Shown here: one piece after another, positions 2,536 to 2,904 of the stretch
Layout of the letters: the number at the start of each line of letters is the position of its first letter
Numbering within the stretch: the first letter of the stretch is position 1
IMG/VR virus record: IMGVR_UViG_2667527657_000005
Reading direction: 5' to 3' (one strand)
Source: a virus
Lineage: Duplodnaviria > Heunggongvirae > Uroviricota > Caudoviricetes
DNA: 6,689 nt
Notes under the pieces: model-generated
What the model saw: the letters and a program-made list of their open reading frames with translations, nothing else
Told to the model about the DNA's origin: nothing
Database searches by the model: none
Made by a program: the position numbers and the translations under genes

Positions 2536-2610
2536 TGGAGCGGGCAGCGGGAATCGAACCCGCATCATCAGCTTGGAAGGCTGAGGTAATAGCCATTATA
2601 CGATGCCCGC
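2536..2610 (-). tRNA. tRNA-Gly (anticodon UCC)
   Basis: Reverse complement reads GCGGGCATCGTATAATGGCTATTACCTCAGCCTTCCAAGCTGATGATGCGGGTTCGATTCCCGCTGCCCGCTCCA. Folds as a cloverleaf with anticodon stem TCAGC/GCTGA and loop CTTCCAA; 75 nt with encoded CCA. Appears identical to E. coli glyT as I remember it. Confidence 0.9.
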
Positions 2611-2613
2611 ATA

Positions 2614-2689
2614 TGGTGCCGACTACCGGAATCGAACTGGTGACCTACTGATTACAAGTCAGTTGCTCTGCCTGCTGAGCTAAGTCGGC
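2614..2689 (-). tRNA. tRNA-Thr (anticodon UGU)
   Basis: Reverse complement GCCGACTTAGCTCAGCAGGCAGAGCAACTGACTTGTAATCAGTAGGTCACCAGTTCGATTCCGGTAGTCGGCACCA. 7-bp acceptor stem, D stem GCTC/GAGC, anticodon stem ACTGA/TCAGT with loop CTTGTAA, T-loop TTCGATT, encoded CCA. One A-C mismatch in the T stem. Not identical to chromosomal thrU as remembered. Confidence 0.8.
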
Positions 2690-2691
2690 GC

Positions 2692-2768
2692 TGGCCCACC
2701 ACCGAGGACTCGAACCTCGCACCGTCAACTTAGAAGGTTGATGCTCTATCCGGATGAGCTAGTGGTGG
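2692..2768 (-). tRNA. tRNA-Arg (anticodon UCU, reads AGA)
   Basis: Reverse complement CCACCACTAGCTCATCCGGATAGAGCATCAACCTTCTAAGTTGACGGTGCGAGGTTCGAGTCCTCGGTGGTGGGCCA. Perfect 7-bp acceptor stem (C1-G72), anticodon stem TCAAC/GTTGA with loop CTTCTAA, T stem CGAGG/CCTCG, encoded CCA. A rare-codon tRNA of the kind carried by lambdoid/Stx-type phages downstream of Q. Confidence 0.8.
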
Positions 2769-2769
2769 T

Positions 2770-2846
2770 TGGTGGCCCTTGCTGGACTTGAACCAGCGAC
2801 CTGGCGATTATGAGTCGCTCGCTCTGACCAACTGAGCTAAAGGGCC
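2770..2846 (-). tRNA. tRNA with CAU anticodon, most likely tRNA-Ile2 (lysidine-modified, reads AUA); tRNA-Met not excluded
   Basis: Reverse complement GGCCCTTTAGCTCAGTTGGTCAGAGCGAGCGACTCATAATCGCCAGGTCGCTGGTTCAAGTCCAGCAAGGGCCACCA. Acceptor GGCCCTT/AAGGGCC, anticodon loop CTCATAA, T-loop TTCAAGT, encoded CCA. Very similar to E. coli ileX/ileY-type tRNA-Ile2 from memory, and in the position of ileZ in Stx-type phages. Confidence 0.8.
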
Positions 2847-2865
2847 GGAGGCAGAATAATAACCA

Positions 2866-2904
2866 TATGTCATCACATCTGCAAACTCATCTGACCACCA
2901 GCGT
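2866..2904 (-). promoter_or_regulatory. Putative sigma70 promoter for the tRNA array
   Basis: Minus strand reads TTGCAG - 17 nt (ATGTGATGACATATGGT) - TATTAT - 9 nt - tRNA 5' end. The -35 matches TTGACA at 4/6 and the -10 matches TATAAT at 5/6 with ideal spacing. Sequence-only prediction. Confidence 0.4.

Follow-up and report, generated by a model that had tools for sequence, protein, structure and literature searches.

The stretch of DNA analyzed here, 6,689 nucleotides (nt) from IMG/VR virus record IMGVR_UViG_2667527657_000005 that we refer to in full as the window, carries a compact array of four tRNA genes in the late region of a lambdoid prophage, between the gene of the late antiterminator Q and that of a holin. 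Coordinates are those of the window, and the order on the minus strand is the order of transcription. In the window, ARAGORN found exactly four tRNA genes, which all lie on the minus strand, and each of them scored above the gathering score of the Rfam family RF00005 (29 bits):

2770-2846, minus strand: tRNA-Ile2(CAU) of the ileZ type; ARAGORN, RF00005 at 70.5 bits, tRNA-Ile in RefSeq.
2692-2768, minus strand: tRNA-Arg(UCU) on an argN scaffold, reading AGA and AGG; ARAGORN, RF00005 at 56.4 bits.
2614-2689, minus strand: tRNA-Thr(UGU), thrU with U16C and U20C, reading ACA; ARAGORN, RF00005 at 69.8 bits.
2536-2610, minus strand: tRNA-Gly(UCC), identical to glyT, reading GGA and GGG; ARAGORN, RF00005 at 64.9 bits.

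The genes lie head-to-tail in the order Ile2 or Met (CAU), Arg(UCU), Thr(UGU) and Gly(UCC), separated by 1 nt (A, 2769), 2 nt (GC, 2690-2691) and 3 nt (UAU, 2611-2613), and the sequence of all four encodes CCA at the 3' end. A preliminary description, made from the letters of this DNA alone and naming no strand, had given the spacers as 3, 2 and 1 nt, which has the lengths right and the order of the plus strand rather than that of transcription; its picture of four genuine tRNAs with encoded CCA and spacers of 1-3 nt was borne out by ARAGORN, by Rfam and by the sequence. In RefSeq, the identical DNA is labelled tRNA-Ile, tRNA-Arg, tRNA-Thr and tRNA-Gly, with none of the four flagged as a pseudogene. 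Two outcomes had been named in advance as fatal to the description, and neither was found: none of the four genes is a pseudo-tRNA, and the array does not reproduce any chromosomal tRNA operon.

The first two genes resemble those of Stx phages. The CAU tRNA differs from the ileZ of Stx2a_F349 in three alignment columns, one of which is an indel, and is thus of the ileZ type. Its acceptor stem has C4-G69 and C5-G68 as in K-12 ileX, whereas metT and metU have U4-A69 and A5-U68. Ikeuchi et al. are said to have reported in 2005 that TilS tells tRNA-Ile2 from tRNA-Met by just these two acceptor-stem pairs. Judged by them, the CAU tRNA is of the Ile2 type, as had been supposed, and is predicted to be a lysidine-dependent reader of AUA. 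The tRNA-Arg (C1-G72, A20 and discriminator G73) aligns with the argN of Stx phages and neither with host argU nor with phage argO, and it follows the first gene at the same 1-nt spacing, with the anticodon UCU here and UCG there. The argO gene, a tRNA-Arg(UCU) on a scaffold of its own, is absent from the window array, and Thr(UGU) and Gly(UCC) stand in its place.

The relation to the ileZ-argN-argO cassette of Stx phages (933W/Sakai type; compared with Stx2a_F349, AP012530), which the preliminary description had recognized, extends from the ileZ and argN types of the genes to the site downstream of Q and upstream of late cargo or lysis genes, to an upstream motif TTGCAn-N17-TATTAT-N9 and to the proposed role in rare-codon supply. 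Apart from the argN anticodon and the two last genes, the window differs in that it has no stx genes and in that a structured leader and a P21-type holin come directly after the array. Because argO is absent, with Thr(UGU) and Gly(UCC) instead, the window array is a sister of ileZ-argN-argO and not that cassette itself.

The last two genes lead back to the host. The tRNA-Gly is identical to K-12 glyT at 75 of 75 positions, as had been noticed before, and the tRNA-Thr matches K-12 thrU at 74 of 76, the only differences being U16C (window 2674) and U20C (2670), both in the D-loop; the anticodon arm, ACUGA-CUUGUAA-UCAGU, is that of thrU, unchanged. The earlier view that the tRNAs other than Gly are phage-specific therefore fails for Thr, which in most sister arrays is identical to thrU at 76 of 76 positions. 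The UAU spacer corresponds to the base after thrU and the two bases before glyT, the bases that flank the tyrU-containing segment in the host operon thrU-tyrU-glyT-thrT-tufB, and would fit a deletion of tyrU and its spacer from thrU-tyrU-glyT-thrT; at only 3 nt, this is a weak but consistent sign. Unlike the host locus, the window has neither tyrU and its spacer nor thrT, tufB or the host promoter, and it lies in the late region of a prophage. On the strength of these alignments, the cassette is chimeric, combining the ileZ-argN pair of Stx phages with a host thrU-glyT pair trimmed of tyrU, half of it being an apparent trimmed capture of a host operon, and the mosaic origin suggested earlier is upheld as a phage pair joined to a host pair.

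The Thr-Gly pair is also found alone in other phages. In phage SerU-LTIIb (L131, 601-751), it occurs without Ile2 or Arg, shares the C16/C20 Thr allele and the TAT spacer with the window, and its Gly has five changes compared with that of the window, including a compensatory acceptor pair, U6-A67. Given these changes, the host-derived Thr-Gly pair circulates as an independent module, and there has been time for it to diverge.

The array is flanked on the same strand by the following features, given in the order of transcription:

3046-3426, minus strand: late antiterminator Q, PF06530; Pfam Phage_antitermQ with E 5.8e-54; RefSeq homologue "antiterminator Q family protein", 126 amino acids (aa).
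2935-2959, minus strand: intrinsic terminator, tR'-like; AAACCCGCC-UCCG-GGCGGGUUU, then a U-run; perfect 9-nt inverted repeat I6, in the minimum free energy (MFE) and centroid folds.
2856-2884, minus strand: candidate sigma-70-type promoter; -35 TTGCAG at 2884-2879, 17-nt spacer, -10 TATTAT at 2861-2856.
2244-2535, minus strand: structured untranslated stretch from tRNA-Gly to the holin start; MFE -92.2 kcal/mol, z -4.65, with 0 of 200 shuffles as stable.
2028-2243, minus strand: P21-type class II holin, the first lysis gene 3' of the array; Pfam Phage_holin_2_1 with E 5.5e-35, and RefSeq.

The array thus lies between Q with its terminator and the holin, on the strand of both, and all the loci inspected have it between Q and a holin. 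The terminator, a strong one, lies about 90 nt 3' of the Q stop codon and has a core stem CCCGCC/GGCGGG that is lengthened to 9 bp by A-U pairs, a UCCG loop and six U after the stem. A simple terminator scan missed it because the extension of the stem uses up the U-run, and it was found by folding and by repeat finding. From its position, we infer that it corresponds to lambda tR'. The promoter pR', which is expected just 3' of Q, was not located, a consensus scan of 3046-2960 giving no promoter match. Among closely related loci (L110, L106, L116, L047, L071 and others), the terminators, about 60-100 nt 5' of the first tRNA, differ in stem and loop, for example CCCGCTTTATGCGGG and CCCGCCTCCGGGCGGG, and a GC hairpin with a T-run is always kept upstream of the cassette in sister loci despite the differing sequence. 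This pattern suggests that the upstream hairpin is under selection for termination and not for sequence.

The candidate promoter lies 50 nt beyond the terminator, and a GC-rich stretch of 9 nt (2855-2847) separates the -10 hexamer from the 5' end of tRNA-Ile2, in apparent resemblance to stable-RNA promoters. The preliminary description had called this promoter near-consensus, which overstates the match: the hexamers agree with the consensus at 8-9 of 12 positions (9 of 12 when scored in an 18-nt register), and 1.7 such matches would be expected by chance in the region. The promoter as such is probably real, and what supports it is conservation. A pattern scan of IMG/VR for the scaffold of the second gene (slot 2) gave 120 loci, in which the 110 nt upstream take 51 different forms; these group into 15 families whose distal upstream flanks are only 26% identical, equal to background. 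In 13 of these 15 families, the pattern TTG...-N16-18-TA...T-N8-10 is anchored at the tRNA start, and the sole upstream islands conserved across families lie at -38 to -33 and -15 to -10. The motif TTGCAn-N17-TATTAT-N9 is also found 5' of ileZ in an Stx2a phage, so that window, Stx-type loci and most other families share it at a fixed distance from the first tRNA. Since motif and spacing are conserved across otherwise unrelated upstream flanks, a sigma-70 promoter belonging to the cassette itself is very probable, its predicted start lying 1-3 nt before the mature 5' end. A candidate that we rejected is TCGGCA-16-TATAAT (2622-2595, minus strand), which is the top consensus match at 10 of 12 and lies inside the Thr and Gly genes with the glyT D-arm as its -10; we took it for a by-product of tRNA sequence, probably without meaning, and it also shows that consensus matching alone is worth little here.

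The array is no rarity, be it in the 120-locus IMG/VR sample or in 5,426 complete E. coli genomes. Nineteen other IMG/VR loci have the 311-nt array of the window letter for letter; 80% or more of a 531-nt query that covers the array is present in 493 of the complete genomes, the slot-2 and Thr pair in 629 and the window allele at 99% identity or more in 29; with the type present in 493-629 genomes, about 11% of complete E. coli genomes carry cassettes of this kind. The window type CAU-UCU-UGU-UCC makes up 26 of the IMG/VR loci, CAU-UUU-UGU-UCC 47 and the Stx type CAU-UCG-UCU 24, and all 73 loci of the two four-tRNA types (73 of 120 overall) have spacers of 1, 2 and 3 nt. Slot 4 is glyT in 65 of 78 arrays, and slot 3 is thrU or the window allele in 63 of 78, being identical to thrU in 42. 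We read this constancy, together with that of the spacers, as a sign of selection.

The anticodon on the argN scaffold of slot 2 (C1-G72) varies: Stx phages have UCG there, the window has UCU and the commonest sister array UUU, and a single genome shows UGU. The allele with UUU, present in about 584 of the 5,426 genomes (examples are L003 3095-3171 in E. coli S51, L005 3095-3171 and L006 2595-2671), has the loop CCUUUAA, with C and not U at position 33, and a Rfam score of 44.4 bits, on a scaffold with C16, G39 and U41 and no CNG motif. Alleles of slots 2 and 3 are linked in IMG/VR: the C16/C20 Thr goes with UCU in 23 arrays and the thrU-identical Thr with UUU in 46, the mixed combinations numbering 5 and 2.

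Recombination boundaries are sharp on both sides, one immediately outside the promoter and the other right behind the CCA of Gly, and the cassette is found with varied Q families, upstream flanks and downstream flanks. It is a mobile module of a well-known kind. Ever since the sequencing of Stx phages, tRNA cassettes have been familiar from the late leader of lambdoid prophages, and annotating them is routine. In keeping with this, RefSeq genomes already carry annotations for the identical DNA, as several phage genomes do for sister arrays; our literature search, which fell short of key older papers, did not find a paper describing this particular tRNA composition. In E. coli RMDEC332 (L004, 3349-3419), the Gly gene now has the anticodon UAC, is annotated as tRNA-Val and lacks 1 nt of its acceptor stem; in the Thr gene, the anticodon stem is changed at two positions of its 3' strand. 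Because this copy is decaying, individual prophage copies can erode.

What the cassette might do is best approached through codon usage, which we counted in the 56 annotated coding sequences of the lambdoid prophage of E. coli CFSAN029787 (10,712 codons) and in 42 core coding sequences of K-12 (14,748 codons). The codons most enriched in the prophage are the following, with their ranks among 61:

AGG: 6.6-fold, rank 1.
AGA: 5.9-fold, rank 2.
CGG: 3.7-fold, rank 3.
AUA: 2.8-fold, rank 4.
ACA: 2.8-fold, rank 5.
GGA: 2.7-fold, rank 6.

The five codons read by the four tRNAs thus fill five of the top six places (1, 2, 4, 5 and 6), and the earlier expectation that the cognate codons would be over-used by the prophage is confirmed. 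Against a 100-kb host baseline with long open reading frames (ORFs) only, AGG, AGA, AUA, ACA and GGA take ranks 1, 2, 5, 4 and 7. E. coli encodes these minor isoacceptors once (argU, thrU, glyT) or twice (ileX, ileY). With one or two host genes per isoacceptor, one prophage copy roughly doubles the gene dosage.

Given this match, we think it probable, while well short of certain, that a self-contained module of about 350 bp, consisting of the promoter and the four tRNA genes, serves in the lambdoid late-operon leader to supply rare-codon tRNAs. The same interpretation was given for tRNAs downstream of Q in lambdoid phages (PMC3636060). The module sits between the Q/tR' region and the lysis genes, co-oriented with them. 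In the lysogen, its own sigma-70 promoter would drive transcription from a start about 1-3 nt ahead of tRNA-Ile2, and during lytic growth, Q-modified RNA polymerase coming from the late promoter would read through tR' and add to the transcription of the array. Having a private promoter, the module could supply tRNA ahead of late transcription, which would solve the problem of timing. TilS would turn C34 of the CAU tRNA into lysidine, and the extra copies might then raise the supply of the four minor isoacceptors and thereby speed up the translation of phage genes and other acquired genes rich in their codons. A conserved promoter of its own implies expression in the lysogen, which could help the host to translate acquired genes rich in rare codons, including virulence genes.

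For the tRNAs to be released, RNase P would cut at each tRNA 5' end and free the upstream tRNA with a trailer of 1-3 nt, which RNase T and RNase PH could trim back to the encoded CCA. The standard E. coli route is an RNase E cut 1-3 nt after CCA, and in valV-valW, with a 4-nt spacer that is not AU-rich, RNase P alone performs the separation before exonucleases trim the ends (PMC2190699). This precedent removes the ground for the unusual processing that the preliminary description had read from the short spacers. The array shares very short spacers that are not AU-rich, encoded CCA and the likely route of RNase P followed by exonucleolytic trimming with the RNase P-separated tRNA operons valV-valW as well as leuQ-leuP-leuV; it differs from valV-valW in its spacers of 1-3 nt rather than 4 nt and in a predicted 5' leader of only about 1-3 nt. 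In the K-12 operons compared, the closest spacers are 6-9 nt, and the phage array is therefore more compact than K-12 operons and not different in kind.

Several observations weigh against rare-codon supply as the explanation. Lambda, counted over its whole genome against K-12 core genes, has no tRNA genes and yet ranks AGA, AGG, AUA and ACA first to fourth, with GGA tenth; since it shows the same bias without the genes, the cassette is dispensable and the codon match, nearly perfect as it is, is a general trait of lambdoid phages. Early genes and lysis or accessory genes show the highest enrichment, and AUA in structural genes reaches only a non-significant 1.4-fold; a purely late-expressed supply would serve early genes poorly. 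In addition, the commonest sister array carries UUU in slot 2 although AAA is not enriched (rank 22-23), and therefore codon demand does not explain the UUU allele, nor the whole cassette family. The promoter hexamers are weak by themselves. Finally, neither a terminator scan nor folding found a clear terminator between the array and the holin that would keep a constitutive transcript out of the lysis genes.

A second explanation is that the cassette, or at least its Thr gene, keeps translation going when anticodon-arm nucleases of competing elements destroy host tRNAs. The phage Thr copy would then replace the cleaved host tRNA, either by being cut less well or by being made in excess. We regard this as unlikely, and the evidence is divided. 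P2-Old cuts mainly tRNA-Thr(UGU) and blocks lambda by destroying the thrU tRNA, and rescue is obtained from phage Thr(UGU) tRNAs whose stems are altered (PMC12445682). The prime targets of AriB of PARIS are Lys(UUU) and Thr(UGU); it cuts between C40 and A41 of U36-A-A-U-C-A41, U39A abolishes cleavage, and U16C in tRNA-Lys, where T5 carries C16, significantly impairs it (PMC12409363). The window Thr has the anticodon of the prime target of both nucleases and, differing from thrU by U16C and U20C only, has U16 replaced, and its C16/C20 allele recurs in the different phage context of SerU-LTIIb. The anticodon arm of glyT also has a paired CAG/CUG motif and A37.

However, the window Thr keeps the whole thrU anticodon arm, with CUG/CAG at 28-30 and 40-42, A37 and U36-A-A-U-C-A41, which are the determinants of both nucleases, and so shows no altered anticodon stem, be it at the CNG pair 28-30/40-42 or at U39, C40 and A41. 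Over-expressed host thrU gives little or no rescue from P2-Old (PMC12445682). Positions 16 and 20 of the D-loop are among the least constrained in tRNA, such that the two changes can be neutral, and the effect of U16C was shown for tRNA-Lys and not for tRNA-Thr. Moreover, Thr is identical to thrU in most sister arrays (42 of 78), Gly is identical to glyT, and Ile2 and Arg(UCU) are not reported as principal nuclease targets. Compared with the nuclease-resistant tRNAs of virulent phages (the Lys, Thr and Asn tRNAs of T5 against PARIS, and phage Thr(UGU) against P2-Old), the window thus shares the target anticodon UGU and, with T5, C16, but its anticodon arm is that of the sensitive host tRNA, and it concerns a temperate prophage with a small cassette of four genes.

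The relatives of the array broaden the question. In the sister arrays of about 584 E. coli genomes, an argN scaffold that apparently lacks any known AriB or Old determinant (C16, G39, U41, no CNG motif) seems to have been re-anticodoned to UUU, with C33 beside the PrrC cut site, and AAA is not phage-enriched. Other lambdoid phages (phage 21, SfI, Sf6 and ST64T) carry an Asn(GUU)-Thr(UGU) pair downstream of Q, in the same Q-to-S slot and with ACA over-used, for which codon bias offers no explanation in the case of Asn (PMC3636060). The SfI Thr, unlike that of the window, is no thrU copy: its scaffold is unrelated, its anticodon stem is altered (G39, no C28), and it has other partner tRNAs. The set of tRNAs that AriB targets consists of exactly Lys(UUU), Thr(UGU) and Asn(GUU), and neither AAA nor AAC is phage-enriched. 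It is conceivable, if rather improbable, that the tRNA slot between Q and S in temperate lambdoid phages is at least partly an anti-nuclease locus directed against PARIS and P2-Old of rival P2/P4 elements. If true, about one tenth of E. coli genomes would carry prophage counter-defence tRNAs expressed from a private promoter. The coincidences of Thr, UUU and Asn are suggestive and yet compatible with neutral D-loop drift; as Thr(UGU) and the Lys(UUU) of relatives coincide with the main PARIS and P2-Old targets, they offer a cheap and direct test for counter-defence by temperate phages. The slot-2 UGU variant was considered as an anticodon swap towards Old/PARIS targets and dropped, being a singleton among the 5,426 genomes.

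Another possibility, which we hold to be quite improbable, is that the cassette is a neutral passenger, or moron, spread by recombination at the Q-S junction and still intact through recent acquisition and gene conversion with host copies. That lambda does without tRNA genes despite the same codon bias would agree with this, as would the highly mosaic flanks and the decay of some copies, seen in the RMDEC332 Gly and in scattered single mutations in IMG/VR copies. On the other hand, 13 of 15 upstream families retain the promoter hexamers and their spacing despite divergence of the spacer and of the distal sequence, the tRNA spacers are strictly conserved, and acceptor-stem differences are compensatory (A3-U70 versus G3-C70 in slot 2, C6-G67 versus U6-A67 in Gly). 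Furthermore, ileZ and argN are intact though there is no identical host copy to convert against, and the cassette type is present in about 11% of complete genomes.

That the array is a displaced chromosomal tRNA operon or an integration-site remnant, as the (near-)identity of Thr and Gly to thrU and glyT might suggest, can be dismissed as most implausible, since no host operon has its order (in thrU-tyrU-glyT-thrT-tufB of K-12, adjacent genes are 8 and 6 nt apart, and 116 nt separate tyrU from glyT), the array has neither tyrU nor thrT nor any of the host flanks so that only two tRNA bodies match, all four genes are full length, and the prophage integrase and attachment site lie about 15 kb away next to mlrA. 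A link to tRNA-dependent lysogeny (PMC10865867) was rejected as well, the prophage adjoining mlrA with no tRNA gene at the integrase end.

Downstream of the array, the structured stretch 2244-2535 contains three perfect inverted repeats (I2, I3 and I4, of 14, 11 and 9 nt) and a T7 run, is nearly invariant among sister arrays with the same flank type and matches no Rfam family. It is possible that it acts as a transcript end, a processing site or a 5' stabilizer. Other arrays have unrelated downstream flanks, several of them with obvious hairpin and T-run terminators. An E-value search of 2200-3100 against Rfam returned the tRNAs and sub-threshold noise, and nothing else.

Over 399-6254, the window is 99.7% identical to the lambdoid prophage adjoining mlrA in E. 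coli CFSAN029787. The neighbours of the array are all on the minus strand and follow each other in the order DnaC-like loader, DnaB-type helicase, NinH, Q, array, holin, a 209-aa ORF, lysozyme and Rz. The 209-aa ORF (1395-2024, minus strand), between holin and lysozyme, has no Pfam match and a RefSeq homologue that is labelled hypothetical; sister prophages have a YdfR-family gene or nothing at its site, and it looks like an accessory gene inserted within the lysis cassette. Homology to the CFSAN029787 prophage stops at window 399, where the Rz gene ends, and on the other side at 6254. In 1-398, the window has an HTH_Tnp_1 transposase ORF (31-333, minus strand) where the reference prophage has ParD/ParE toxin-antitoxin genes, and this ORF is probably part of an insertion sequence.

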